Sequence record: ON210137.1
DNA length: 64,000 bases
Direction: 5' to 3' (one strand)
Source of the DNA: Escherichia phage EC150
Below the pieces are notes generated by a model, which was not told the DNA's origin, did no database searches, and saw only the letters and a program-made list of their open reading frames with translations. Each line of letters opens with the position of its first letter. Position 1 is the stretch's first letter. Below, piece after piece: positions 2,623 to 61,702 of the stretch. Position numbers and translations under genes: made by a program.

Positions 2623-2928
2623 ATGAGTACCGAAGCTATGAAGAGCAAGTTGTTTGAGGTGATGCAGCCCGCTGTCGAGTGCGGAGCTATTCAGGAGTTC
2701 AAAGAGACGCAAGAAGGCGGTGAGCCAGTATTCTTCTTCAAGAACAAGAAAGGTGCGGCGGCTGCGGTGATGCTCTTGAAGAACAGCGACACGACCTTTA
2801 TCCTTTGCGCAGGCGGTTATGACCTTGTTGCCGATGATGCCTACATCACCTGTGCGACGGGTCTTAATCCTATGTTAACGTTTGAGCGTCGCGGCATTCG
2901 TGTTGCGACGTTTGGAGGCGGTTTATGA
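2623..2928 (+). CDS. hypothetical protein (101 aa)
   Basis: Start adjusted to internal ATG 5 nt after AAGGAGAGG. Confidence 0.5.
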   Translation: MSTEAMKSKLFEVMQPAVECGAIQEFKETQEGGEPVFFFKNKKGAAAAVMLLKNSDTTFILCAGGYDLVADDAYITCATGLNPMLTFERRGIRVATFGGGL

Positions 2929-3110
2929 GCACCGAAGTCCATAACGCATCAGCACTGGTAAGCTTTTACCGAAACAAAGGCGTGTCGCTAGTTAAAACGC
3001 CGCAAGGCATGCTGTTCTTTGGCACGCGATTCCTTAAGGCTTCGGAGCGTGAAACGCTGTCTAAATTCGACCAGAAGACATTACACGCAGTTTGGAGAAG
3101 ACAGCAATGA
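2925..3110 (+). CDS. hypothetical protein (61 aa)
   Basis: Short ORF with start/stop overlaps on both sides. Confidence 0.35.
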   Translation: MSTEVHNASALVSFYRNKGVSLVKTPQGMLFFGTRFLKASERETLSKFDQKTLHAVWRRQQ

Positions 3111-3307
3111 CATCAAATCTTAAGGCCCGTTTATTATTCATCAAGCCGCATGTGCCGTATAAGATTAGTAAGCGCACCTGGATTAACATTTACAACCGCA
3201 GCGGCGACCGTTGTTTGTACAAGGCAAAGCGGCGCAAGAAGGTATATTTAAAGGCTGTGATGTCGCAACCCGTCGATGCATTCAACATCGGCGAAAATGA
3301 ACTGTAA
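3107..3307 (+). CDS. hypothetical basic protein (66 aa)
   Basis: Internal ATG overlapping upstream stop (ATGA); track ORF begins with TTG at 3092. Confidence 0.4.
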   Translation: MTSNLKARLLFIKPHVPYKISKRTWINIYNRSGDRCLYKAKRRKKVYLKAVMSQPVDAFNIGENEL

Positions 3308-3339
3308 ATCGGCTATCAAATTGAACTCGGAGTAAAGAA

Positions 3340-3849
3340 ATGAAAATCGAACAACTCGAAGCAGTATTGGAAATGGCTGTAAAGGCAGGCGCAATCAGAA
3401 GCTATAGCCGCGAGAAGTCGGATGACGCTGCGCACTTTTGTCGCAACTTCTATATCGTCGGCAACCTTAATGACCACTACACCATCGAGTGGTATACTAA
3501 TATGATGGCTCTTAAGTCGCGCACCATGGAGCTTTGGTGTGATGATGTCTGCTTATCCAACACCCATCCATCCTACGACGTTGCGTTAGCATTCTATTAC
3601 GGAAGCCGTCAACCTGTCGCCCACATCGGTGAGAAGTATGAGCACCTTAAGGCGCGACCAGAGGAATCAATGGACGGTTGGATTTATTGGGCTGGCGTCA
3701 ACAATCCTGTTCCTGGTAAGAAGGTCATGTTTAAATTGCGCTTCGGCTATGAATCTAAATCACCTGCTCTTTCAGATGATTTGAGATGGGAGATTGTTGA
3801 CGATGCTTATGCAACTGACATCATTGCTTATCGAGTCATGGAGGAATAA
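3340..3849 (+). CDS. hypothetical protein (169 aa) sharing a C-terminal domain with 5004-5429
   Basis: C-terminal ~58 aa (W.G.NPVPGK.V.F.L..GY.SK...SD.L.W...AYRV) is paralogous to the C-terminus of the 5004-5429 product. Confidence 0.55.
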   Translation: MKIEQLEAVLEMAVKAGAIRSYSREKSDDAAHFCRNFYIVGNLNDHYTIEWYTNMMALKSRTMELWCDDVCLSNTHPSYDVALAFYYGSRQPVAHIGEKYEHLKARPEESMDGWIYWAGVNNPVPGKKVMFKLRFGYESKSPALSDDLRWEIVDDAYATDIIAYRVMEE

Positions 3850-4190
3850 TGGAAGAGCAAGAAGGCCGTGAGCTAACGTTCGACGAGCAAATGCAAGAGC
3901 TTCAGCGCACATCGTCGCTGCGCGGTAAGGTTGTTGACATCGAGGCGAGCGAATCCAACCTCACCCAGTGGCGGCTCAAGTGCACCAGCACAAGCAAGGA
4001 TATGTTAAGCTTCAAAGTCGGTCAGACTTATTTGCTTTATGAGGCAAAAGGACTTATTATTGATGGAAGGCAAATTGTCTTCACGGTAGTCAGCGGAATG
4101 CATTGGTTCGTGAAGCGTGATGTCGAGGGCCGTGACATGTTTGTCGCAGGATTTCCAGAAACAAGATTCCAATTGGAGAAGGTTAAATGA
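3849..4190 (+). CDS. hypothetical protein (113 aa)
   Basis: ORF in same-strand array; start abuts upstream stop. Confidence 0.5.
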   Translation: MEEQEGRELTFDEQMQELQRTSSLRGKVVDIEASESNLTQWRLKCTSTSKDMLSFKVGQTYLLYEAKGLIIDGRQIVFTVVSGMHWFVKRDVEGRDMFVAGFPETRFQLEKVK

Positions 4191-6774: not shown

Positions 6775-7981
6775 AATTTGCACTATGGGATTTGCACTAT
6801 GAGTCAAGATTATGTAGCAATGCCTGAAGACTTTGAAGACCCGCGATTTGCAGAGCATAATCAGGCATTATTCGATGAGTTCATTGACCTTGTTATTCAG
6901 GGCCATGACATGCGCGCAGCTTTTGCACTAGTATTTGGCATGGAGGTTGCGACCGATAACTACACTGGCCAGCGAGTCCTCTGCACGCAACGCAATCCGT
7001 ACTACAAGATGCGCTACAAAAAGCGTATGGAAGAGATGCCATTGAAGGAATTGTGGAGCGTAAAGAGTTCCATCCACAATTTAGTGAAGCTTGTGCGTGA
7101 TCCAGAAGTCGCGGCGTCAGCCAAGCTTAATGCCATTCGTGAACTGAATATCATCTACGGCATCACGATGATTGATGAGAATGGCAATAGTAAAATGGGC
7201 CGTTCCATGGACGATTTCTACAAGGATTTTGGAGAGGCAGCCAAAGAGGGTGAGCAATTCTCCCGCCACTAGCCAATTTGCACTATAAAACGGCCCTAGA
7301 ACACATTTTCTCCACTTCTAGGGCCATCGGTAATACGACGGGGAAGGTTACAACCATAAACGCGTTAGAAAGTGTATTATTATAAGTCATCTTTTAGTCA
7401 CTTTACGTAACAATTTACGACCTTCCGCCGTCCAGTCGAACGACTCCACCAGCAGATTTGCACTATAACCTAAGACGATGCGCCCTTTCTCGTTATCGAC
7501 CCGCCAACAAGTCTCGAATAGCATTCGATTTGCACTATTAACTATCGCCGCAACGCGCGCTGGGTAAGCGCAATTTGCACTATGGTCGTAAAGGGATAAG
7601 GTGCGACCACTTCCGATGGACAACGTAGCGATGAGAATAAGCGTATTCATAAGCCACCAATTTGCACTATGAAAAGCGACCCCGAAGGGCCGCCATTCGA
7701 TTAGATGATCTGGAATGTGTATGACTTGTTGCCGAACTCGAAGTTCAAGCGCCCAGCTTCCTTAAGCTTCATGCGGAAGCGAATGTGCTTGCTATCCGGT
7801 AATCCCAGCGCGATGAAAGCTACGCGGACCGATTTGAACTCGCCTACACCCTCGACCATAACGCCGTTACGGGTGAGACGCTTTTGCGCCACTTCCTTAT
7901 TATCCCAACTTTTTGCAATGCCTTCGCTATTCGAACGGCGATGGGAAGAAGTTCCATTTTGCACTACGCAATTTGCACTAT
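6775..7981 (+). repeat. array of 9 same-orientation copies of an AATTTGCACTAT-like 11-12-mer
   Basis: Copies at 6775, 6790, 7275, 7456, 7528, 7572, 7659, 7956 and 7970; irregular spacing; two copies overlap the start of the 6799 gene. Confidence 0.6.
6799..7272 (+). CDS. hypothetical protein (157 aa), possible regulatory or DNA-binding protein
   Basis: ATG embedded in a motif copy and downstream of the near-consensus promoter; function is inference only. Confidence 0.5.
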   Translation: MSQDYVAMPEDFEDPRFAEHNQALFDEFIDLVIQGHDMRAAFALVFGMEVATDNYTGQRVLCTQRNPYYKMRYKKRMEEMPLKELWSVKSSIHNLVKLVRDPEVAASAKLNAIRELNIIYGITMIDENGNSKMGRSMDDFYKDFGEAAKEGEQFSRH

Positions 7982-8327
7982 CGTTTAGGCCGCTCTTAAC
8001 GAAGGCTTCATACTCTTCGTCGGTCATCGCGTCGAGTTCTTCCTGAGTCGGCTCAGACTTTTTAACGACCGCACGCGCCTTATGCGTTTTTACATCGCTG
8101 GGCACTTCCTCGCGCGGCTTCGCGTCGGGAATGGGCGATTCGTTGGACGGCTCATCGAGCGCGTTCAAGGACTCGATTAACGCGATTACGCGAGTCTCGG
8201 CGGTCCGGCGGTCCGCGAACTTTTTAATCGGCTTCGAACCGGAATTTGCGTTGTAAAATGCAACGAGGTCGGCGGTCTTAGTTGCGATAACGTCGCCGCT
8301 AGTCGAGAAGCGATTTAAGCTAACCAT
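7701..8327 (-). CDS. hypothetical protein (208 aa)
   Basis: AGGAG 6-7 nt upstream of start at 8327; 5' half CpG-rich like the adjacent island; 3' part overlaps two motif copies so extent is uncertain. Confidence 0.5.
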   Translation of the reverse strand: MVSLNRFSTSGDVIATKTADLVAFYNANSGSKPIKKFADRRTAETRVIALIESLNALDEPSNESPIPDAKPREEVPSDVKTHKARAVVKKSEPTQEELDAMTDEEYEAFVKSGLNDSANCVVQNGTSSHRRSNSEGIAKSWDNKEVAQKRLTRNGVMVEGVGEFKSVRVAFIALGLPDSKHIRFRMKLKEAGRLNFEFGNKSYTFQII

Positions 8328-8407
8328 AATAAACTCCTATTTGTTAGGGCGCTAAGCGCGAAAGAATTTTATTAAAGCGCCGCGCACGACGCTCTTAAAA
8401 TCCTCTC

Positions 8408-8692
8408 TTACGCTTCGACGAGGGAGAAGGTTTCAAATTCTTCTTCGCCCATAACGAGTAAAATATTCCCGATTTCGACCGCTTCGAAGAAGTATCCGTT
8501 AACGTTTACTTCGAAGGCTTCGCGGTCCGATTCCGGTAACGCCGCGTAAAGTTTAAAAGCCTCGGCGACCGTTACCCCACCCGCTTCGATAGTTTGGTCT
8601 ACGTTCGCGGCGTAGACTTCGGATAAATTTTGTTTTACGCCGTAGTTCTCGACGATAGCGTTACGGATAGAAGAAACGTTAAGAATAGCCAT
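8408..8692 (-). CDS. small acidic protein (94 aa), paralog of 9326-9616
   Basis: N-terminus and V.(V/I)NG(Y/F)...(V/I)EIG block align with the 9326-9616 product; conserved leader CTCCCAACTAGGAG upstream. Confidence 0.55.
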   Translation of the reverse strand: MAILNVSSIRNAIVENYGVKQNLSEVYAANVDQTIEAGGVTVAEAFKLYAALPESDREAFEVNVNGYFFEAVEIGNILLVMGEEEFETFSLVEA

Positions 8693-8832
8693 TTTAAACT
8701 CCTAGTTGGGAGAGGCGTTAACGACCTATTCGTTAACTCATCCCGTCCCGATATGAGTACATTATAATATAGTGTAGAAAAAAGTAAAGCACTTTTTCGA
8801 TAAAAATGCGATAAATTATTTTATCTTTTTCC

Positions 8833-8860
8833 TTTACTTCTTCGTACACTCGCGTATACT
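8833..8860 (+). promoter_or_regulatory. sigma70-like promoter, duplicated element copy 1
   Basis: TTTACT, 16-bp spacer, TATACT; whole ~45-bp unit (CTTTACTTCTTCGTACACT ... TTTATATCGAGA) repeated at 9229-9272. Confidence 0.4.
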
Positions 8861-8915
8861 TGTTTATATCGAGACGGGCGATGGCCTTCCTTCTACTAGC
8901 ATCGGGAGTTTTATT

Positions 8916-9218
8916 ATGACTACTTTAATCTCTTCTATCCTTACTTACGACGAAGACCGTTTAACCGTTCGTTCTCTTATCGCCGCCGTTAACGCGGAAC
9001 TAGAATCCACCATCATTAAGGTCCGCGCGGTCGCTTTCGTCGGCCTTTCCTTCGACGATATTAAGTATGCCGAACGTAGCGCCATCCGCTTCGCGAAGAC
9101 CGACGACGAAGCCGTTACCCTTATCGAGACGGTTACGCCGCGCGGCGAAGCGTTAATTATCGTCGAGTATATCGACGTAGAGGGCGATAAGGCTTATAAA
9201 TATTTTATCGCAAAATAA
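8916..9218 (+). CDS. small acidic protein (100 aa)
   Basis: ORF with its own copy of the duplicated promoter; CpG-rich codon usage unlike the rest of the window. Confidence 0.5.
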   Translation: MTTLISSILTYDEDRLTVRSLIAAVNAELESTIIKVRAVAFVGLSFDDIKYAERSAIRFAKTDDEAVTLIETVTPRGEALIIVEYIDVEGDKAYKYFIAK

Positions 9219-9229
9219 CGAAAAAGTGC

Positions 9230-9258
9230 TTTACTTCTTCGTACACTAAGACTATAAT
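9230..9258 (+). promoter_or_regulatory. sigma70-like promoter, duplicated element copy 2
   Basis: TTTACT, 17-bp spacer, TATAAT; same unit as 8832-8874. Confidence 0.4.
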
Positions 9259-9325
9259 GTTTTATATCGAGAGGGGAGAGGAAGCGAATAGGTCGCCTTC
9301 CCGCCCTCCCAACTAGGAGAATATT

Positions 9326-9616
9326 ATGATTACTTTATCCGCTATCCGTTCCGCTCGCGTCGAGACTTCCGAAAACTCTAACGTATTTGGCGAAACCTTA
9401 GAGAGCGTTTATCTCTCTAACGTCGACGCGACTATCGAATCTATTTATGAGCCGATCAACTTCCTCGACCTTTACAAGTATCGCGACGAGGACATCGTAT
9501 CATCCCGCGTAACTATCAACGGCTTCGTCTATACGATTACCGAAATCGGCGGCGAATATATCGCGGTCCCGCAACTCGGCGGCGAAGTAACTTATTTTAA
9601 AATCGTCTCCTTATAA
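9326..9616 (+). CDS. small acidic protein (96 aa), paralog of 8408-8692
   Basis: Aligns with the 8408-8692 product; AGGAG RBS inside conserved leader CTCCCAACTAGGAG. Confidence 0.55.
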   Translation: MITLSAIRSARVETSENSNVFGETLESVYLSNVDATIESIYEPINFLDLYKYRDEDIVSSRVTINGFVYTITEIGGEYIAVPQLGGEVTYFKIVSL

Positions 9617-9781
9617 TACCCTTCCGTTACTAATAGGCCGCGCTTAGTCGCGGCTTTTCTTCGTCCCTATCCCGATGCGCGTCTACGCGAAAACTCCTTT
9701 ATCCTTCCCTTCGTCGTCGCATAATCTTCTTCGAGATGCTCCTTAGTTCGCATAACAGGTATTACGTTAAATGGAGAACAT

Positions 9782-9854
9782 CGCGTAAGTCCTTGTTTTA
9801 TATAGACACCTATATCGGACCGTTAGGGCGGGTCGCGTAAGTCGTTGTTTTATA
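9782..9854. repeat. 21-bp direct repeat, 2 copies
   Basis: CGCGTAAGTCCTTGTTTTATA at 9782 and CGCGTAAGTCGTTGTTTTATA at 9834. Confidence 0.4.
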
Positions 9855-9979
9855 AAGGCGCAAAACTTTCCCTTCGTTCCGAACTAAAACGAGAAATGTG
9901 CCGACCCTTCGCCCGAAAATAGTACGTATGCGAAATTACATGCATCTCGAATAATCCCTCCCGATATTATCCTACACGC

Positions 9980-10042
9980 AATCATTCGCTTTCGAATCAT
10001 TATGCTTCATATTGTTATGCGTCGAATCATTCGCTTTCGAAT
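9980..10042. repeat. 18-bp direct repeat, 2 copies
   Basis: AATCATTCGCTTTCGAAT at 9980 and 10025. Confidence 0.4.
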
Positions 10043-10131
10043 TGTAACGCTGGAAACTGTAACGGCGATTGATTATTGCGTTCGTGTGGTTTTTATGGCA
10101 TGGGTCTTTTGGTGCGTTTTGGTACTTGATG

Positions 10132-10244
10132 AAATTTGCAGTACACTAATCAAAATACGACACATTTGGTCCACTAACTTTTCAAAGAAAAAGTCCTAGA
10201 CAGTACCGTACTATTTTGTACCCACAGGAAATTTGCAGTACACT
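10132..10244 (+). repeat. 16-bp direct repeat, 2 copies, related to the AATTTGCA motif family
   Basis: AAATTTGCAGTACACT at 10132 and 10229. Confidence 0.4.
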
Positions 10245-10314
10245 CCTGCGCGGCAGGCAAAACAAAGGGCCGCACTAAGCGACCCACGATTCACGGTTAA
10301 ATCAGCAACACCCA

Positions 10315-10695
10315 CTATTCGCTCTTATGGGCATCACCAAAGCCATCCGCAATCTGGCTGATCAATGATTCAATGGACACAGTTTTACCAATTGATCGAG
10401 CGGTAATAGCAAGCATATTATCAATCAAACCATGATTGGATGCGTATGGTTCAGGTTTTGAATCATCTTCAGGACAACCAAAAAGCTGGTCGCGCAAACT
10501 TTCGAGAGAACGCTCAACATTTTCCAACTTCTCTTCTAAATCGGATTGGCGACGTAAAACCCATGTCAAGTCACGGTTGCCAACTTCCAATCCATCAGAA
10601 TAGCAAGGTGGAGCGTCAATTTTGTTGCTGGAACCAAAAGCAGTGCCGCTGCCTTTAGTATAAGTATGGCTCATAGAATCATTTTTATTTGACAT
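10315..10695 (-). CDS. hypothetical protein (126 aa)
   Basis: Minus-strand ORF in accessory block; no recognisable domain. Confidence 0.45.
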   Translation of the reverse strand: MSNKNDSMSHTYTKGSGTAFGSSNKIDAPPCYSDGLEVGNRDLTWVLRRQSDLEEKLENVERSLESLRDQLFGCPEDDSKPEPYASNHGLIDNMLAITARSIGKTVSIESLISQIADGFGDAHKSE

Positions 10696-53873: not shown

Positions 53874-54415
53874 TATTTACTCCAGATGTCATATACGCCA
53901 ATTTGTTGGCAGACTTTGTGCAGTAATATTACGTCGTCTAATGCACGGTGCTTCTGTTCATATTTTCCGAAATATAATTCATACAGCTCTTGAAGCTTAA
54001 CTCTTCGGCCAAAAATAGGCAAGGTTTGCTCAACTGTACATATGTTTATTTCTGGAAAATTAACATCATCAAGCGTAAGTCCTTCGCGCTGTAGTGCATA
54101 ATCAAGAATGTTTTTATCGAACGCATGGTTGTGCGCGATAGTTGCATCAGTCTTCTTGAAGATTTCTTTTAGCTGCGGGACGAAATTGATGAACGGTGGA
54201 TTGCACTCAAGGTCTTCATTAGTTAATCCGGTAATCTTTGTGATGATTTCTTCAATCACAATTTCAGGATTAATTATGAATTCAAACGTTTCAAGAATCT
54301 CTTTGCCGTCTGTCAACAGACCTGCAAATTCAATAGGACGCGGCTGCATCCCAAGCGGCGCTTTCGGGTGCACGGTCAATCCGGTTGTTTCGAAGTCATA
54401 AGGGAGAAATAACAC
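53873..54415 (-). CDS. DnaQ-like 3'-5' exonuclease (DEDDh)
   Basis: Exo motifs YDFETTGL, AHNHAFD and HRALDD. Confidence 0.8.
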   Translation of the reverse strand: MLFLPYDFETTGLTVHPKAPLGMQPRPIEFAGLLTDGKEILETFEFIINPEIVIEEIITKITGLTNEDLECNPPFINFVPQLKEIFKKTDATIAHNHAFDKNILDYALQREGLTLDDVNFPEINICTVEQTLPIFGRRVKLQELYELYFGKYEQKHRALDDVILLHKVCQQIGVYDIWSK

Positions 54416-54426
54416 ATTAGCCTCCT

Positions 54427-54453
54427 ACAAAAAGGCCGCCCATTAGGACGGCC
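54427..54453 (-). terminator. putative terminator after accessory operon
   Basis: Imperfect hairpin GGCCGCC/GGACGGCC preceded on the plus strand by an A-run (U-run in the minus transcript). Confidence 0.35.
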
Positions 54454-54469
54454 ACAGATTCACGATTCG

Positions 54470-55021
54470 TTATACGGTGTACGGAGTACCGTCTTGATTC
54501 AAGCGCACGATAAACTTAAGGTCGACGCCAATAATATCACGCGTGTCAAAGATCACATAGTTGTAGCGACGTTGACCAGCAATGTTAGGATTGGTGTGGG
54601 AGTCGGTGATGACTTCCTGCGCAACCTGAATATGTTCGTTCTTAAAGAACTCACGCCATTCGGCAAGTTCTGCGGCAGTCACGTGCATGCCAAGGTGGCT
54701 AACCTGATTATCGTGCGCATCGATGTATTCAATGTTTTCGTTAATCCAGTTGCAGCCCTTTGTGTAGTCAAGGATTTCAAGCTCAAGAGGCTTACCAGCG
54801 CTGCCATCAGTTCCGTTTCCAGCTTGATAGTTGAAGCGTAAATCAGCTTCGTTGGTGCAATCGCCGCGCTGGCCTTTAAAGTCATCAGATTCAAATACGC
54901 GACCAGTAGCAACAACGTGATCATGGAACCATTCTGTCAGGCCGATTTTAGCCAGGAAATTCTGTGCGCGCTGAGCACCTGGGATTGACAGGGCGATTTG
55001 TTCAATTTTAAAATGTGGCAT
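54470..55021 (-). CDS. VOC/glyoxalase-fold protein
   Basis: FKIEQIALSIPGAQRAQNFLAKIGL and VSHLGMHV fit the two-module pattern of glyoxalase-like proteins. Confidence 0.4.
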   Translation of the reverse strand: MPHFKIEQIALSIPGAQRAQNFLAKIGLTEWFHDHVVATGRVFESDDFKGQRGDCTNEADLRFNYQAGNGTDGSAGKPLELEILDYTKGCNWINENIEYIDAHDNQVSHLGMHVTAAELAEWREFFKNEHIQVAQEVITDSHTNPNIAGQRRYNYVIFDTRDIIGVDLKFIVRLNQDGTPYTV

Positions 55022-55117
55022 TTTGTTTCCTTAATTAAATATTATTGATTAATTACTGTGTTATCTTCGTCCTGTTTCTTTTCAGGAGCGGGTGTGACAA
55101 CTTCAAATGTTCGTGAT

Positions 55118-55801
55118 TTATTTCCCAAATGGAATATCAGTACCAGACATAAAGCGCCATGCGCCCGTAATTAAGATATGGCGAATGAAGTCAGCAATTA
55201 CTTGCGGCTCAGTCTCCAATCCATTCATCAGTGCCTTTTTCTGGTATTCAGCAGCATACTCAGGAGTCCAGCCGCGAGTCGCGCAAACAGCATCTTCAAT
55301 CTGTTTGGACATGCCAGTACCACGTAGCTTGTTAGGACTAATAGAGAATACCGTGATGCCGTATTTAGGCGTAAGCTCGTGAGCCATCTGCTTGCTAATC
55401 ATAAGCGCAGCAGCCTTGGATGCATTATAACACAAGCTGGACGTCATAGGAATGTGCGCAGCGTTAGAAACGATATTGATCACAAAACCTTTGTTGTCGA
55501 TAAGACTTTTCAGCGCGGCTTGAGTCGTGTTAACGAAAGAGAATGCGTTGGTGTGCATAACGCGATTGAACTCTTCGTAGTTAACATCTTCGAACCAGTT
55601 GTTGGAGTTGACGCCAGCGCAGTTGATCAAGCCTTCTACATCATATGGGCTTAAAATTTCTTTCATCTGTTTAGCGTCGCGGACGTCATATCCGTATGCT
55701 GAATCGATGCCAAGCACGTTATGACCGTAAGCGCCAAGGGTGTCAAAAATAGATTTACCAAGACCGGAATTGGAACCTGTTACAACAATTACTTTTTTCA
55801 T
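55118..55801 (-). CDS. short-chain dehydrogenase/reductase (classical SDR)
   Basis: TGSNSGLGK cofactor-binding motif, NCAG, catalytic YNASK. Confidence 0.8.
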   Translation of the reverse strand: MKKVIVVTGSNSGLGKSIFDTLGAYGHNVLGIDSAYGYDVRDAKQMKEILSPYDVEGLINCAGVNSNNWFEDVNYEEFNRVMHTNAFSFVNTTQAALKSLIDNKGFVINIVSNAAHIPMTSSLCYNASKAAALMISKQMAHELTPKYGITVFSISPNKLRGTGMSKQIEDAVCATRGWTPEYAAEYQKKALMNGLETEPQVIADFIRHILITGAWRFMSGTDIPFGK

Positions 55802-55866
55802 TTATTTATCCTTTTTGGACTTCGTTTCGATGAGATAAATATAACTCATCGAAACGCACAAGTAAA

Positions 55867-56739
55867 CTATTTATTGAAATTAATATTATGGGTGTTGACA
55901 AGACGTTCACACATGGCGCTGTAAACACCATCGTCGTGTATTGAGTCTTCGTGCTTCAGGCCGCTGATTGCGAAGCGTGTAAGCTTGACAATCTTAAGCT
56001 CGAACAGATGCCACATGTGGTAGTCTTCCGGCGTTTTCAACGTTACGCCATTAGGGAAAAGCACCTGCATAACCTGGCCTACCATCACAGCGTTATCGCC
56101 ATAGACAGCGTTGCGCTCACGAAAGGTTGCTGCCATTGCATCAAGAATATCGGCGGCAGTTGCCGGAGATTGTTCAACTTCCACAGCCTTAGTCTCTTCT
56201 TGCCCTGTTGCGCTTGGATCAATTGCTAATTGTTGCACCACTTCACCTGCCTTGCAAAGATTAAATGTAAAAGCGATTTTATTTTGAGCAACGGAATTAT
56301 AATACAATGCTTCATCTTGCATCCGCGCGAGTACGTCTTGTCGGTCGTCGAATACGTTGATGATTCGATAATCGCCGTGGCGCAATGCGTGCGATAGCCA
56401 TGCAGATTTCATAATAGTTGATGGACGTTTGTCGCCATAGTCTCTCATCTTGATTGTAAATTCATCAAAAGGAAAAACATTGTCCAGACGTTCAAAAGTC
56501 ACTTGTCTGTATTTTTCTGGCCTTGCAGTCCAATATTCAACCGCCTCACCGCGAAGAGATGCCGACTCTACTGCTGATGCAATGTGAGGATAGAACTGAT
56601 CATAACCAATACCGCTATGATAGTCATCATAGTCTGACAACGGACCTGCCACCTTGATGCGGTCTAAGCGCCAACGGTCATCAAACAGCGTTCCGTCAAG
56701 GTCGAATACGTTTAAGATTTCGCTGTTTTTAATGCTCAT
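55867..56739 (-). CDS. HAD-superfamily phosphatase (T4 Pnk phosphatase-like) fused to an uncharacterised C-terminal domain
   Basis: VFDLDGTLF motif I; later DDRQDVLARM resembles the Pnk phosphatase domain; C-terminal ~140 aa unassigned; 4-nt overlap with upstream ThyX-like gene. Confidence 0.65.
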   Translation of the reverse strand: MSIKNSEILNVFDLDGTLFDDRWRLDRIKVAGPLSDYDDYHSGIGYDQFYPHIASAVESASLRGEAVEYWTARPEKYRQVTFERLDNVFPFDEFTIKMRDYGDKRPSTIMKSAWLSHALRHGDYRIINVFDDRQDVLARMQDEALYYNSVAQNKIAFTFNLCKAGEVVQQLAIDPSATGQEETKAVEVEQSPATAADILDAMAATFRERNAVYGDNAVMVGQVMQVLFPNGVTLKTPEDYHMWHLFELKIVKLTRFAISGLKHEDSIHDDGVYSAMCERLVNTHNINFNK

Positions 56740-57539
56740 CCTTTTGATACTCCATCTTTAGCAACTGGATTGTTGGTGATTGGCATCGCACTCCAAAACT
56801 GGATGCGCAACTCTTCTTGCTGTGACGTGGTATCCATCCAATCACGATACCAAGGGCAATGGGCTTTGCCATGACGAGGAAACGCGCATTTACCCATACC
56901 GATGCATTGCGGCTGTAATAATGGATTTGCCCACGGGTGCACCTTGAGGACTTCCGCAACCATTGCGCGGAATACTTCTTGATACTCGCCTTGAGTGCGC
57001 GTGCACAAGCGGTTTGACGCCATCTGCTGCAGCGTGCGCAAGTTGAACTTTGCCATGATATGCGTTTGCATATTAGAAGGCAACACGGCACGTGCATCTT
57101 GAATCTCTGCGCCAGCCGCGCGAAGCTCTTGATACAAAGCATCGATAGTCGCCATCGCATCATCCCACTTCTCTGCCAGTTCAGCGGCCTTCTCGTCATG
57201 ACGAGTCCATCCCTTTGGATCATCCTCTGGGTAAGTGAATTTAGCAGGACGAATCGCATCAAATGCAGACGACTCCTGAGCGCGGCTGGTGCGTTCTTGA
57301 TATGCGCCTGTGCGTGTGCGTACCATCTGATGGGTCATGTTCTTTGATACATCTGTGATATCAAAGATATAGTCCACAAAGTCAAAAGGCGACTTGATTG
57401 TATCAAGCATGTAGCGCCAATGCTCTTGCTTCTCTGATTCCGTCATCTCAGAGACAGGCTTACCAGTCATGCGCGTGTTCTTTGTTTCCAGCAAAAGGTC
57501 AAGTGCATCTTGGGTGTATCGAATTAATTCAACTTTCAT
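56736..57539 (-). CDS. thyX: flavin-dependent thymidylate synthase (ThyX)-like protein, divergent
   Basis: 267 aa; QMVRTRTGAYQERTSR aligns with the ThyX signature region but His of RHR is Thr; C-terminal TRTQGEYQ...HPW resembles the ThyX SHAQ.E...CPW region. Confidence 0.65.
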   Translation of the reverse strand: MKVELIRYTQDALDLLLETKNTRMTGKPVSEMTESEKQEHWRYMLDTIKSPFDFVDYIFDITDVSKNMTHQMVRTRTGAYQERTSRAQESSAFDAIRPAKFTYPEDDPKGWTRHDEKAAELAEKWDDAMATIDALYQELRAAGAEIQDARAVLPSNMQTHIMAKFNLRTLQQMASNRLCTRTQGEYQEVFRAMVAEVLKVHPWANPLLQPQCIGMGKCAFPRHGKAHCPWYRDWMDTTSQQEELRIQFWSAMPITNNPVAKDGVSKG

Positions 57540-57552
57540 TTTAATTATCCTA

Positions 57553-57999
57553 TTAACGGTAATTCACTAGTTGCTGATCACCAGAGAAGGTGCAATGATA
57601 AACGAATTGTGCGTTATAAAGCAACTGAAAACTTTTCTTTGGTTCATTATTAGAACTCATCGATGTAAAGATTTCTGCACCAGAACGGTTTTCACCAATC
57701 AGATTAATAAAGCCGCCAGTTGAACGAGGCTGGACGAAAGTGAAACGTTGCATCCACGGAGTACGGTTGGCACCTTTCCCTGTGAATCCCTGAATCTGAA
57801 TATTCAGACCTTCTTGCTCGTTCACACCGATGTAAGTGGTAATCTTCGCACCAGTCGTTGCTGCGGTCTTACCGTCCATCGCTTCGCAATCGTAAACAGC
57901 GATTGAATCGGAAGTACGGATGGCAGCTTCAGTCGCTTCCATATACATGGTGCCGAGAATAGCAGTTGCGGCAAGCGCGATTCCAGTGATTCGTTTCAT
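57553..57999 (-). CDS. secreted protein of unknown function (148 aa)
   Basis: Signal-peptide-like N-terminus MKRITGIALAATAILGTMYMEATEA; two Cys in mature part. Confidence 0.5.
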   Translation of the reverse strand: MKRITGIALAATAILGTMYMEATEAAIRTSDSIAVYDCEAMDGKTAATTGAKITTYIGVNEQEGLNIQIQGFTGKGANRTPWMQRFTFVQPRSTGGFINLIGENRSGAEIFTSMSSNNEPKKSFQLLYNAQFVYHCTFSGDQQLVNYR

Positions 58000-58064
58000 T
58001 TCCGTTTCCTCTATGAGTTCTGCTTCAATGATTAAAGTATACGCCCATTGAAGCAGAAAGCAAA

Positions 58065-59060
58065 TTATTTATTAGCAATATAAGCAAATTTTTGATAGTT
58101 ATTTGCTTTGATGAGTTTTTCAACTTCAACAAGGTCATGAGCGACGTCATCAAGCAAAATGTTGCGCCAGGTAGCAAATCGACCGACACTAAACACGTTC
58201 AAATCCATGGTCAGCTGCAGGAGTAGGGCGTGTCGCAAGTCTTTCGGAATGTCGACAATCTTGCCATATTTCTGGTCGACCTTTTCAACTTCTTCAAGAG
58301 CAATGTCACTCCATGAGAGGCCAAAAGCTGTCAACACTTCGTCGACTTCTGCGCGCAGCTTGATGTCACGGTAACGAGTGATGCCGCCAGCGGCTTCAAC
58401 TGCAGCTTCACTCACGCTGACCAAAGGAATTGTTTCAATGATCAGTGTGTCGCCAGTGATTGATGCGCGGTAAGTTCTGACGGAGTAGTCAGGGAAGTAA
58501 ATTGTTTGATACAAATCACACTTACGTTTAATCTTAAAGCGGTAAACGCGAATGTTTGCTTTATCAAATGAGAAATCAAGCTTTTGATCAATCCCAGCCA
58601 GCTTCATCATGACTGGCAGCGGCGACGTGTTGATGATTGGCGTCTCGCTATAGCCGCAAAGAGTATCAACCGGAGTATTAAAGAATATGCGGTCACCCAG
58701 TTTGTCGACAAGCTGATCATAAAAGTCATCAGGCGCAATATAACGTGTTGCAGTCTTAAGCTTCATGATTGAACGGCTGCCAAACTGATTGGTGACCTTC
58801 ATGGAATACATATTGGCAAGGTTGATTGGGCAATGGTCGTGGTAGTAGTTGCCGCGAAAATACACAGCCTTGTCAACTGTCACGGCCTTGAAAGGGATTC
58901 CGGTAATACGGCTTACTTCTTCGCCGCGAAAGCGTAGAAGCGCCTTGTGCTGTTGCGCTCGTTCCCCTGCTTCGTACACAATAGAGTTCGGGAAGTGACA
59001 CGCTGTGATAAGTCCTGCCAGTCCGCCGCCGATAATCATTACAGGTTGTTTCATGTTCAT
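58065..59060 (-). CDS. FAD/NAD(P)-binding oxidoreductase
   Basis: N-terminal Rossmann dinucleotide-binding motif VMIIGGGLAGL; 331 aa. Confidence 0.65.
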   Translation of the reverse strand: MNMKQPVMIIGGGLAGLITACHFPNSIVYEAGERAQQHKALLRFRGEEVSRITGIPFKAVTVDKAVYFRGNYYHDHCPINLANMYSMKVTNQFGSRSIMKLKTATRYIAPDDFYDQLVDKLGDRIFFNTPVDTLCGYSETPIINTSPLPVMMKLAGIDQKLDFSFDKANIRVYRFKIKRKCDLYQTIYFPDYSVRTYRASITGDTLIIETIPLVSVSEAAVEAAGGITRYRDIKLRAEVDEVLTAFGLSWSDIALEEVEKVDQKYGKIVDIPKDLRHALLLQLTMDLNVFSVGRFATWRNILLDDVAHDLVEVEKLIKANNYQKFAYIANK

Positions 59061-59137
59061 TTGTCCTTTGTGGGTGATATGAGAAGTATAATAGCTAAAT
59101 TATTTTACAGCAACAAGTCATTTTATTTAGTACAGAT

Positions 59138-59165
59138 GAAAAAAGACCCACAACAAGTGTGGGTC
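59138..59165 (-). terminator. rho-independent terminator after Lys/Ala/Glu-rich gene
   Basis: 8-bp stem GACCCACA/TGTGGGTC, 5-nt loop, U-run in the minus-strand transcript. Confidence 0.5.
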
Positions 59166-59192
59166 AATTACCGCTGCATAACCGTCCTAAGG

Positions 59193-60038
59193 TTATTCCG
59201 CTTGATCACCGTCTTCGGCATCTTCGTTGGATTCAACATCGACAAACTCGATGTGACCCATCTCTTCCAGCTTGCTCAGGTAGGAGCGAACTGAAGCGCC
59301 AAACAGTTGATCTTTAACTTTTTCGCCCAGCTCATCGATAGACTGTGCCACGCCAACTTCGCCTTCTTTGATCGCCGCCAGAACGCGTCCACGGGTGGAA
59401 TGCTCTTGCGGCTGACTCAGGCCATTGCCAGTGTAGATGAAGTGAGTAGCTTTTGCACGACGCTGACCATTGGCCTTTTTGGCAGCCTTACGTTCTGCGA
59501 TGGCTTTGCGACGTTCTTCAGCTTCTTGCTTACGCTGTTCTTTCTGCTGTTCTGCAGCTTCTTTCGCCGCAATCTTAGCAGCTTCACGCTCTGCCTTGCG
59601 TTTCGCTTTGGCTTCTTCTTTGGCCTTCTCTTTTTCGGCCTTCGCTGCAGCACGGGCTTGATCACGCTCTGCTTTCTTAGCAGCAGCTTGTTCAGCTTTC
59701 AGGCGCTTGGCTTCTTCTTTAGCCTTTGCCTTTTCGATTTCTTTCGCTGCTTTAGCGGCTTCACGCTCTGCTTTCTTAGCAGCAGCCTTTTCTGCACGCT
59801 CTTTGGCCTTCTTGGCTGCTTCTTCAGCACGCTTCTGAGCCTTCTCATCAGCAGCCTGCTTGCGTTTCAGGGCAGCTTCTTCACGCTTGGCTTGTTTTTC
59901 CTGCTCACGCTTCTGGCGTTTTTCTTCGGCTTCTTTCTTTTTAGCCAGACGTTTTTCTTCAGCCACGCGACGACGTTCTGCTGCAGCTGCTTGTTTTTCT
60001 TCTTTAGATAATACTTTGATTGCTTCGGCCATGTTCAC
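59193..60038 (-). CDS. Lys/Ala/Glu-rich low-complexity protein with acidic C-terminal domain
   Basis: About 190 aa of charged helical repeat (EEKR..KAK.EA...) then a ~90-aa C-terminal domain ending in an acidic tail. Confidence 0.6.
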   Translation of the reverse strand: MNMAEAIKVLSKEEKQAAAAERRRVAEEKRLAKKKEAEEKRQKREQEKQAKREEAALKRKQAADEKAQKRAEEAAKKAKERAEKAAAKKAEREAAKAAKEIEKAKAKEEAKRLKAEQAAAKKAERDQARAAAKAEKEKAKEEAKAKRKAEREAAKIAAKEAAEQQKEQRKQEAEERRKAIAERKAAKKANGQRRAKATHFIYTGNGLSQPQEHSTRGRVLAAIKEGEVGVAQSIDELGEKVKDQLFGASVRSYLSKLEEMGHIEFVDVESNEDAEDGDQAE

Positions 60039-60191
60039 AGTCCTTAAATAAATTAGTTTATTTTATATTCCCCGTTTGGGATAACTTAATTATGCCTTCA
60101 GTCGCCGCCAGTAGCAACTAAAAACTCTGGCAGCAATGCCACTTTAATTAAACTGATTTTCAGTTTTATTTTTCGTAAATTTACGTCAACA

Positions 60192-61376
60192 TTAACGCGC
60201 TTTCAAATCACGGTACACGGTCAGATTCTTTTTAGCGCGGGTAATAGCGGTGTACATCATCTTTGCATACGGAACGCCGCGCAGGATTTCTTCCAACACG
60301 CACACATTGTCCCACTCGCTGCCTTGCGATTTGTGCACCGTTATGACATAGCCATAGTCCATGCCTCCAACGGCTCGTTGGGCCTCTTTGCGCACTTCCT
60401 GATCAGTAGAGAAGGAAAGAGGATTTATCTTCACCTTTATATCTTTGCCATCGGTAAGCGAGCGCAAGTTGACATACATGATTTCATTAGACTCGTCTTC
60501 ATCCCTTTCAAAGTCCGGCACTGGCTCATAACTAATAACAATCCCTTGCTCGCCATTACAGAATCCTGGACCGTGTTGGTTGAATGTGCAAATAACTTTC
60601 TCTCCGATTCCTGGCATCGGCGTTATACGTCCGCTCACTTGCCGCAATAATGAATTCCATTTATCTTTGGTGCTATTATATGAGCAAATAATTTGATCAT
60701 CTTCGCCCATGAATTTCTTCAACGCAGTAACGCGCGGCGATTCAGCCAACACCTTGACATCATCGTATTCACGCGGAGGAAGTCGGTTGCCCTGTCGCAC
60801 GAAGAAGGAAGCGCGGATGATGTTGGACTCTTTCCCTTGCCGCATGATTTCGGTTAACAGTACGTCAACGGCATCTTCAGTAAAGTAGGCGGCGGCTTTT
60901 ACCGGAGGGACTTGTCCAATGTCGCCTAATGCCAGAACAGGGATGCGGTGATCAAGAAGGCGCTCTGCGTCCCACTCGCCAACCATTGAAGCTTCATCAA
61001 GGACGACAAGATGCGGCCTTTCATCAAGCGTTGACTTCCTTGCAAAGATTGGTTCATTGTCATCGTTAACGCCGCGCACGTTATAGATGAACTGGTGAAG
61101 GGTCTTAGCGCCACGACACCCTTTCTGCTTCAATCGGCTGGCGGCCTTTCCGGTCGGCGCAATATAAATGGCACCGTACTCACCGACACAACGGCGCACA
61201 ATCTCACGCGCAATAGAGGTTTTACCTGTTCCTGCATAGCCAGCGATGAAAAACACGCGCTTCGTTGTTTTGCCGTCCTGCAATCGCTTGTACCATGCAA
61301 CGGCCTTTTCGATGGCGTCAATCTGTTGCGCGTTAAACTGAATCACTGGCTCATCATTAAATTCTGGAATGTTCAT
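60192..61376 (-). CDS. SF1 helicase (Dda/RecD-like)
   Basis: Walker A GYAGTGKTS, Walker B VVLDEASMV, C-terminal HKSQGSEWD motif. Confidence 0.8.
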   Translation of the reverse strand: MNIPEFNDEPVIQFNAQQIDAIEKAVAWYKRLQDGKTTKRVFFIAGYAGTGKTSIAREIVRRCVGEYGAIYIAPTGKAASRLKQKGCRGAKTLHQFIYNVRGVNDDNEPIFARKSTLDERPHLVVLDEASMVGEWDAERLLDHRIPVLALGDIGQVPPVKAAAYFTEDAVDVLLTEIMRQGKESNIIRASFFVRQGNRLPPREYDDVKVLAESPRVTALKKFMGEDDQIICSYNSTKDKWNSLLRQVSGRITPMPGIGEKVICTFNQHGPGFCNGEQGIVISYEPVPDFERDEDESNEIMYVNLRSLTDGKDIKVKINPLSFSTDQEVRKEAQRAVGGMDYGYVITVHKSQGSEWDNVCVLEEILRGVPYAKMMYTAITRAKKNLTVYRDLKAR

Positions 61377-61702
61377 TATAACTCCACTACGCTTTCAAGG
61401 TCCAGATATACTGGAATAAAATGGCAATCTTCTTTTCGTTCAAACATCTCACCGTCAACATGACTGAAGAAAACAGTTGTGTTTGGTATCTTCCACCCTT
61501 GCTCGCCGCGCACTAGGTATGCCATGGATTCAACAGGGATGTAAAGCGATACCGGATTTGCGGCAAAGATGAATTTGATTCTGTCTGGTTGACCAAGGAA
61601 TCGCATAATTGTAAGACTTGAATTCAGTCTTGTATTAAGGAAGGACTCAACGATGCCGACGTGTGTTGCACGTTCGCGTTGCTTCGTATCTTTTTCGTTC
61701 AT
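61376..61702 (-). CDS. hypothetical protein (108 aa)
   Basis: First gene of the minus-strand replication block. Confidence 0.45.
   Translation of the reverse strand: MNEKDTKQRERATHVGIVESFLNTRLNSSLTIMRFLGQPDRIKFIFAANPVSLYIPVESMAYLVRGEQGWKIPNTTVFFSHVDGEMFERKEDCHFIPVYLDLESVVEL

Follow-up and report, generated by a model that had tools for sequence, protein, structure and literature searches.

A ThyX-like gene in a phage replication module

Positions 54000-61500 of the window, the 64,000-nt stretch of Escherichia phage EC150 DNA (ON210137.1) analysed here, were 96.7% identical to vB_EcoM_WFH, a Wifcevirus, with 95-97% identity to ECML-117, FEC19 and Bas101; the window is Wifcevirus DNA, from a group of E. 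coli myophages with genomes of ~68 kb. Read along the coding strand, genes for a Dda-like helicase, a 281-aa K/E/A-rich protein, a 331-aa protein, a 148-aa secreted-looking protein and a ThyX-like protein are followed by those for a HAD/DUF6378-like protein, a short-chain dehydrogenase/reductase, a 183-aa protein, an exonuclease and a DNA polymerase, and the ThyX-like gene lies inside the replication module with helicases on one side and the DNA polymerase on the other (Table 1).

Table 1 Features of the ThyX-like locus and their positions in the window
Feature	Position	Strand	Length	Remarks
Short-chain dehydrogenase/reductase	55118..55801	minus		Pfam adh_short, 109 bits
HAD (PNKP-type) phosphatase, ~aa 1-160, fused to a DUF6378-like domain, ~aa 195-290	55867..56739	minus	290 aa	
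ThyX-like (Thy1 fold) gene	56736..57539	minus	267 aa	Virus-specific 'class B' subfamily; from ORF and Pfam
Four-Cys region: C179, C212, C218, C228	56856..57005	minus		Invariant columns in alignment A1
Motif RTRTGAYQERTSR, residues 74-86	57282..57320	minus		Counterpart of ThyX RHR(x)7S.R
Flavoprotein-fold partner, GxGxAG N-terminus, phrog_4828	58065..59060	minus	331 aa	Adjoins class B ThyX-like genes

The initial annotation had described the 267-aa product as ThyX-like, which we confirm while reassigning the gene to the minus strand. The protein scored 107.1 bits with Pfam Thy1 (PF02511; cutoff 24.8), over profile positions 2-191 of 191, and an AlphaFold2 model derived from 42 homologs (pLDDT 88.9) returned the PBCV-1 and T. 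maritima ThyX proteins as top Foldseek matches (E 1e-10, TM(target) 0.73-0.78), at ~20% sequence identity to solved ThyX structures. The full-length Pfam score and the ThyX fold together place the protein in the ThyX superfamily, and its score of 83.1 bits against NCBIfam TIGR02170, the thyX equivalog model, fell below the threshold of 87.9.

The proposed replacement of RHR by RTR was borne out by translation of the minus-strand ORF and by a phmmer alignment against the PDB, in which 'qmvrtrtgayqertsra' of the phage protein paired gap-free with 'qwfrhriasynelsgry' of T. maritima ThyX. In this register R74, T75 and R76 correspond to T. maritima R78, H79 and R80, so both arginines of the canonical RHR are present and the histidine is replaced by Thr75, while T84, S85, R86 and A87 correspond to Ser88, Gly89, Arg90 and Tyr91. 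The motif reads RTR(x)7T.R, with the spacing of the canonical motif, and the partner of Ser88 is T84, a conservative change, and not S85 as had been read. Translational coupling to the phosphatase gene was likewise evident, as the TGA of the ThyX-like gene shares bases with the ATG of the HAD_PNKP phosphatase gene in an ATGA at 56739-56736 of the coding strand (tcat on the plus strand at 56736-56739).

The phosphatase gene matched Pfam HAD_PNKP at 33.5 bits and belongs to phrog_4889, and the C-terminus of its product was 41% identical (E 1.6e-16) to the product of a separate DUF6378 gene at a metagenomic locus, L004. The best structural match of the 331-aa protein was UDP-galactopyranose mutase (UGM), whose fold it shares together with the N-terminal GxGxxG FAD-binding motif; it matched no Pfam or NCBIfam family, UGM models included. 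The short-chain dehydrogenase/reductase gene is absent from the corresponding Pbunavirus position and may be an accessory gene whose membership of the module is uncertain.

RTR is widespread among relatives of the phage protein

RTR, as VRTR, occurred in all 120 of the closest 90%-identity clusters, which were 52-100% identical to the phage protein and include the EC150 protein as a member at 100% identity (P0001). Long contigs among these clusters were mostly 60-75 kb. Orthologs 48-49% identical to the phage protein were present in the ~290 genomes of the sister genus Pbunavirus (PB1-like Pseudomonas phages) in the phage collection, and that of phage DP1, the sole one translated, has the same RTR motif. 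When 1.84 billion cluster representatives were searched exhaustively with HMMER, 1,620 relatives were obtained at E <= 1e-3; among the best 150 of these the middle residue of R-x-R was T in 63, H in 31, Q in 12, S in 9 and N in 6, and among 102 near-full-length representatives it was T in 60, H in 25, S in 7 and N in 6, with other residues in the rest. Judged from these alignments, RTR is a clade signature and the commonest state of the subfamily, not a lesion or a lone substitution.

In ThyX, the RHR residues form hydrogen bonds to the FAD phosphate and ribityl groups, and the motif also binds the dUMP phosphate (PMC6514825). The hydroxyl of threonine could plausibly supply the hydrogen bonds that His79 gives to the FAD phosphate or ribityl groups; a literature search on His79 in ThyX returned nothing. 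The initial annotation had regarded conservation of this histidine in active ThyX enzymes as decisive, and at the level of homology, which is what the alignment covers, the histidine was not conserved.

Class B proteins lack His53 and Tyr91 equivalents

Aligned with T. maritima ThyX, the 102 near-full-length representatives were split into two classes. Class A, with 10 of the 102, kept the equivalents of His53 and Tyr91 and mostly those of His59 and His79 as well; class B, with 90 members including the phage protein, had neither His53 nor Tyr91. At the His53 position class B usually has Ile (I48 in the phage protein), at His59 Phe (F54), at Tyr91 Val, Thr, Ile or Ala (A87) and at His178 Arg (R181). 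I48 was invariant in the close-clade alignment A1, with Ile in 73 of the 102 representatives, and the Ala of A87 was invariant in the close clade, while the Ser88 position was Ser in 54, Thr in 22 and Ala in 12 of the 90 class B proteins. In canonical ThyX, Tyr91 and Ser88 have been described as 'strictly conserved' and critical for activity, mutation of Tyr91 slows flavin oxidation ~1000-fold, and His53, hydrogen-bonded to Tyr91, stacks with both the folate pterin and the reduced flavin (PMC11940539).

The equivalents of Gln75, Arg78, Arg80, Arg90, Arg147, Arg165 and Arg174 were present in 85-90 of the 90 class B representatives, and those that bind and activate dUMP (Gln75, Arg78, Arg90, Arg147 and Arg174; Q71, R74, R86, R150 and R177 in the phage protein) in 86-90. 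Across hundreds of clusters, the substrate- and flavin-binding arginines together with Gln75, Asn163 and Glu185 were under strong purifying selection. From the sequence comparison, class B appears to be a large, mostly viral ThyX subfamily under clear purifying selection without His53 or Tyr91, in which the active site is retained on its nucleotide side and rebuilt on its folate/flavin-gating side. A TIGR02170 score just under the cutoff is in line with such reshaping, and the kept residues are those expected if the pyrimidine mononucleotide substrate is unchanged and the flavin phosphate is bound. No enzyme assay of any class B member was found in the searchable literature.

The phage protein also has a C-terminal extension of ~60 aa, absent from T. 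maritima ThyX as aligned, with a four-cysteine cluster and a conserved NNPVAKDG tail; C179, the first of the four, lies two residues past R177, the Arg174 equivalent. This quartet may plausibly form a metal site. A phage-specific origin of the four cysteines was considered and rejected, as the quartet is also found in canonical-like archaeal and viral class A ThyX proteins, and its distribution suggests that it is ancestral to a subgroup.

The ThyX-like gene shares its neighbours with distant relatives

Homologs of the flavoprotein (27-41% identity) lie beside a ThyX-like gene in Pbunavirus and in metagenomic relatives, where the ThyX-like protein had RTR (L004, L007), RHR (L014) or RNR (L016). 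In Rhizobium phage RHph_Y65 (207 kb, RNR) the flavoprotein gene lies ~1.6 kb upstream, with an exonuclease gene and three small ORFs between; this flavoprotein homolog is mis-annotated as a polysaccharide deacetylase. The association between flavoprotein and ThyX-like protein is independent of the middle residue of R-x-R. In Pbunavirus F8 the ThyX-like protein, the flavoprotein and the phosphatase are gp59, gp65 and gp57, respectively. A HAD phosphatase gene lies downstream of the ThyX-like gene at most of these loci, and DUF6378, fused to the phosphatase in Wifcevirus and Pbunavirus, has its own gene in L004. An RNase_T exonuclease is likewise encoded on most contigs bearing the block, and a DnaE-type polymerase on several; the block order may therefore be inherited and need not reflect functional coupling.

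RTR is the norm of the subfamily, and RHR, RNR or RSR can stand in its place amid the same neighbouring genes, so the motif by itself tells little about chemistry. The altered chemistry that the initial annotation had deduced from the His-to-Thr change is therefore not upheld as stated, since the middle residue varies and the same neighbours accompany RHR, RNR and RTR.

In RHph_Y65, no thymidylate synthase other than the class B homolog is annotated within the first 150 kb, where that homolog lies among genes for dUTPase, ribonucleotide reductase, dCMP deaminase and DHFR. Searches by tblastn with E. coli ThyA gave nothing below E = 2 in the window, the Bas101 locus and the Pbunavirus loci and found no ThyA-like sequence in RHph_Y65 1-100 kb, and no other thymidylate-synthase homolog was annotated or detected in Wifcevirus or in the Pbunavirus loci examined. 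The search for a second synthase does not discriminate between the functions discussed below, as phages with a hydroxymethylase also use dUMP.

A proposed non-canonical flavin-dependent thymidylate synthase

Taking these observations together, we put the probability that the 267-aa protein is a non-canonical but functional flavin-dependent thymidylate synthase at roughly 0.5. The class B enzyme would bind dUMP and flavin as ThyX does and would move a methylene unit to C5 of dUMP, yielding dTMP for phage DNA replication. Thr75 would take the place of the histidine that forms hydrogen bonds with the FAD phosphate or ribityl groups, and the folate/flavin-gating side would have been remodelled (His53 to Ile, His59 to Phe, Tyr91 to Ala and His178 to Arg) with the nucleotide-binding and -activating arginines all kept. 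The full-length Thy1 match, the ThyX fold and the kept arginines argue for this function, as do the position in the replication module, with no ThyA-like gene in the window, and the nucleotide-metabolism context in RHph_Y65, which is also compatible with a hydroxymethylase; the gene order shared with the flavoprotein and phosphatase could in turn reflect common descent. Against dTMP synthesis stand the loss of the Tyr91 and His53 equivalents, Ala at the Ser88 position in 12 of 90 class B proteins, the TIGR02170 score below the equivalog cutoff, the retention alongside, across 31-41% identity, of a UGM-fold flavoprotein without an obvious role in making dTMP, and the thymidine hypermodification of Pbunavirus, to which genes have not been assigned.

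A possible link to hypermodified thymidine

Pbunavirus DNA, once thought unmodified, was described in a 2025 preprint as carrying a thymidine derivative at ~1/4 of T, in TG context and as a single novel nucleoside peak, which in F8 was a 362 Da 'erythrose/threose sugar alcohol derivative' and in 14-1 a 390 Da 'circularized aldopentose derivative', in phages without homologs of known modification genes (PMC12191111). By arithmetic, 362 and 390 Da match adducts of 5-hmdU (plus tetritol or plus pentose, respectively, each minus H2O) and equally adducts of dU (plus aldopentose plus 2H minus H2O, and plus hexose minus H2O). All characterised phages that hypermodify thymidine begin the pathway with a thymidylate-synthase homolog that serves as dUMP hydroxymethylase (PMC8989533), and the only such homolog here is the ThyX-like gene. 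Wifceviruses resist most restriction systems, EcoRI and EcoRV included, with EcoP1_I as the exception (PMC11990801), and their genomes contain 30-38 EcoRI, 8-14 EcoRV, ~87-92 EcoCFT_II and ~90 EcoP1_I sites.

The principal alternative to dTMP synthesis, which we hold tentatively, is that this ThyX has been neofunctionalised and releases a C5-substituted dUMP for thymidine hypermodification. C5 of dUMP would still be activated via a flavin-N5 adduct, after which either water would trap the exocyclic methylene to give 5-hydroxymethyl-dUMP, or an aldose or aldose phosphate would replace formaldehyde/CH2-THF as the electrophile to give a reductive or cyclised adduct. Class B enzymes would then be flavin-dependent dUMP C5-alkylating or hydroxymethylating enzymes that might, in concert with the neighbouring UGM-fold flavoprotein and HAD phosphatase, form a new pathway, the missing one behind the sugar- or sugar-alcohol-bearing thymidine of Pbunavirus, and the DNA of Wifcevirus and of many uncultured relatives might be likewise modified, which would also explain the restriction resistance of Wifcevirus.

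Several features of the enzyme and its partner are consistent with such a change. Two solved ThyX structures among the Foldseek matches, 7ndw and 7ndz, contain a formaldehyde-derived N5-carbinolamine flavin, showing that aldehydes are chemically accessible to the ThyX fold as electrophiles, and the equivalent of His53, which stacks the folate, has been lost. The reaction of UGM, the best structural match of the partner, involves a uridine nucleotide and proceeds by way of a flavin-N5-sugar adduct. In addition, the divergence between F8 and 14-1 is concentrated round the ThyX-like gene, where the genes are 78-82% identical and the flanks 96-99%. The broader suspicion of non-canonical chemistry in the initial annotation is thus reasonable, on grounds stronger than RTR, namely the loss of His53 and Tyr91, the equivalog score, the flavoprotein neighbour and the Pbunavirus thymidine, and the neofunctionalised enzyme is a serious possibility.

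However, the TG specificity and the single new peak argue for a post-replicative, DNA-level step and not for a modified dNTP pool, as does the fact that ~3/4 of Pbunavirus thymidines are canonical. The ThyX-like proteins of F8 and 14-1 differ by 19 substitutions, all in variable loops and an insertion, and their cores are identical although the modifications differ; differences in the ThyX-like protein were accordingly rejected as the cause of the two distinct modifications. The loss of Tyr91 and Ser88 gives no specific prediction of hydroxymethylation, and we know of no ThyX-fold protein for which hydroxymethylase activity has been shown; the block order, moreover, is perhaps inherited. No glycosyltransferase, kinase, oxygenase or transglycosylase was recognised in the Bas101 annotation or, by Pfam, in the ten larger unannotated Wifcevirus ORFs. 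Of the known phage thymidine-hypermodification pathway (Lee et al. 2018/2021), neither the 5-hmdU DNA kinase nor an enzyme of the aGPT-pyrophosphorylase family appears in the Bas101 annotation, the ten larger ORFs having no Pfam match of either kind, and tblastn and annotation revealed no ThyA-family dUMP 5-hydroxymethyltransferase. A search of the window for the anti-END inhibitor of Pbunavirus (14-1 gp87/gp88; anti-END1) found no homolog, which weighs neither way.

We regard it as improbable that thymidylate-synthase chemistry has been lost altogether, leaving a nucleotide-binding regulator or an enzyme that acts on UMP, dCMP or nucleic acid. Such a loss would accommodate the departure from the canonical extended motif at four positions and the TIGR02170 score under the equivalog cutoff, and the ThyX paralog PolB is known to methylate UMP as well as dUMP (PMC5954106). 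The purifying selection on the substrate- and flavin-binding arginines, Gln75, Asn163 and Glu185 nevertheless speaks for a working active site, and the arginines that read uracil O2/O4 are retained, which would disfavour cytosine; dCMP, which the initial annotation had listed as a candidate substrate, is thus disfavoured, both uracil-polarising arginines (the Arg90 and Arg174 equivalents) being kept. The ThyX active site is buried at the tetramer interface and would be ill suited to polymers. The departure of RTR from the textbook motif might also have pointed to a sequencing error, a pseudogene or a deleterious mutation of recent date, but all three are refuted by the intact ORF and by the presence of RTR in 120 of 120 closest clusters and in Pbunavirus at 48-49% identity.

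Implications

ThyX is an antibacterial drug target, and its 'extended motif' is treated as universal. If class B enzymes make dTMP, ideas on which residues of ThyX are catalytic (His53, His79 and Tyr91) will need revision; if they do not, this would be the first ThyX-fold enzyme feeding DNA hypermodification. Pbunaviruses rank among the phages most often chosen for Pseudomonas therapy; a role in hypermodification, if true, would identify the missing genes behind their modified thymidine and could explain the resistance of Wifceviruses to EcoRI, EcoRV and other restriction systems.

Comparison with known systems

The phage protein resembles canonical ThyX (T. maritima TM0449, M. tuberculosis Rv2754c and PBCV-1 A674R) in its Thy1 fold, in the R-x-R(x)7[S/T]-x-R spacing, in the equivalents of Gln75, Arg78, Arg80, Arg90, Arg147, Asn163, Arg165 and Arg174, and in the nucleotide or replication context of its gene. 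It differs from canonical ThyX at His79 (Thr), His53 (Ile), His59 (Phe), Tyr91 (Ala), His178 (Arg) and Ser88 (Thr). The Cys-quartet ThyX proteins of archaea and some viruses have four cysteines placed as in the phage protein (RLCxxxQ...C-x5-C...C), examples being P0227, from a cluster with a Methanobacteriota MAG protein, and P0258, from a phage-like contig with FolD-like and dNMP-kinase neighbours. By contrast with the phage protein, they keep the His53, His59, His79, Ser88 and Tyr91 equivalents and occur in an ordinary dTMP-pathway context.

A further non-canonical viral wing is formed by the actinobacteriophage proteins named 'ThyX-like thymidylate synthase' (such as Gordonia phage Rumi gp83 and Mycobacterium phage PLot gp68), which share with the phage protein the absence of a His53 equivalent, a non-His middle residue (RQR) and the Cys quartet. 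They differ in their length of 366-375 aa with large insertions and in having Phe at the Tyr91 position, and neither a UGM-fold flavoprotein nor a HAD phosphatase is encoded next to them.

The ThyA-family dUMP hydroxymethylases of hmU and hypermodified-thymidine phages (SPO1, phiW-14, M6 and ViI) are possible functional analogues, being thymidylate-synthase homologs in a hypermodified-thymidine setting, but they have an unrelated fold and mechanism, with a cysteine nucleophile and no flavin. PolB, the ThyX paralog of the polyoxin pathway, is likened here by description and not by sequence; it still methylates, is bacterial and belongs to a biosynthetic cluster, and it offers a precedent for a ThyX fold that makes C5-modified uridine nucleotides for a secondary product.

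A cysteine quartet and a conserved C-terminal extension in the ThyX-like protein

The ThyX-like protein of EC150, in which RTR replaces the canonical RHR motif, has four invariant cysteines, which may form a Zn or Fe-S site near the Arg174 equivalent (T. maritima ThyX numbering). Some members of the clade carry an insertion of 20-50 aa between the third and fourth cysteines, and the conserved C-terminal extension closes with NNPVAKDG. The identical quartet is shared by canonical-like ThyX proteins of archaea and viruses.

Features at the EC150 locus and in the actinophages
Feature	Record	Coordinates	Strand
227-aa short-chain dehydrogenase and 183-aa protein without a family	window	54470-55801	-
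HAD_PNKP phosphatase domain with DUF6378-like C-terminal domain	window	55867-56739	-
177-aa ORF, TTG start	window	56729-57262	-
Invariant C179, C212, C218 and C228 of the ThyX-like protein	window	56856-57005	-
148-aa ORF, N-terminus resembling a signal peptide	window	57553-57999	-
281-aa protein, phrog_4765	window	59193-60038	-
gp83, 'ThyX-like thymidylate synthase'	Gordonia phage Rumi (L025)	2836-3963	
gp68, 'ThyX-like thymidylate synthase'	Mycobacterium phage PLot (L026)	2836-3936	

Genes surrounding the ThyX-like gene

The adjacent phosphatase gene is annotated as 'polynucleotide kinase/phosphorylase', yet its product consists only of the HAD_PNKP phosphatase and DUF6378-like domains, connected by a variable acidic linker; no kinase domain was detected. 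On L004, a metagenomic contig carrying an RTR relative, HAD_PNKP-type and DUF6378-like domains are encoded as two separate genes. On this contig, the ThyX-like and HAD phosphatase genes are separated by an inserted SAM-dependent methyltransferase gene (Methyltransf_23/11; L004 6750-7295).

In Wifcevirus, the short-chain dehydrogenase and 183-aa protein genes separate the phosphatase from the exonuclease gene. Pbunavirus has neither of them at this point in the gene order, and a lineage-specific tailoring role is possible for both. The 148-aa ORF, inserted between the flavoprotein and ThyX-like genes, has no match in Pfam, NCBIfam or PHROGs. The bulk of the 281-aa protein, labelled 'TolA' in some records, is a Lys/Glu/Ala-rich low-complexity region followed by a conserved C-terminal domain; ORF066 of Pbunavirus F8 is also K/E/A-rich and matches in position, a likeness of composition and position. 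The 177-aa ORF, nested wholly within the ThyX-like gene in a different frame of the same strand and overlapping the phosphatase gene start, is probably spurious.

Comparison with other phages

The Pbunavirus phages F8 (L012) and 14-1 (L013), compared at loci 7772-10651, have been reported to differ in their thymidine modifications (PMC12191111). Their flanking replication proteins share 96-99% identity, the phosphatase and small ORFs around the ThyX-like gene only 78-82%, and ORF070, a Cys-rich coiled-coil protein, only 56%.

The 207-kb Rhizobium phage RHph_Y65 contains both the flavoprotein and a ThyX-like gene of class B, the mostly viral subfamily lacking His53 and Tyr91 equivalents; this RNR variant lacks the Cys quartet. 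Annotations in its first 150 kb include dUTPase, ribonucleotide reductase, DHFR, dCMP deaminase and 5'-deoxynucleotidase, together with phosphoheptose isomerase, a PurZ-like adenylosuccinate synthetase, a nucleotide-sugar epimerase and a 2OG-Fe(II) oxygenase.

The actinophage 'ThyX-like thymidylate synthases' Rumi gp83 and PLot gp68 represent an additional non-canonical group: they read RQR, carry Phe in place of Tyr91, lack a His53 equivalent, possess the Cys quartet, and reach 366-375 aa because of large insertions.
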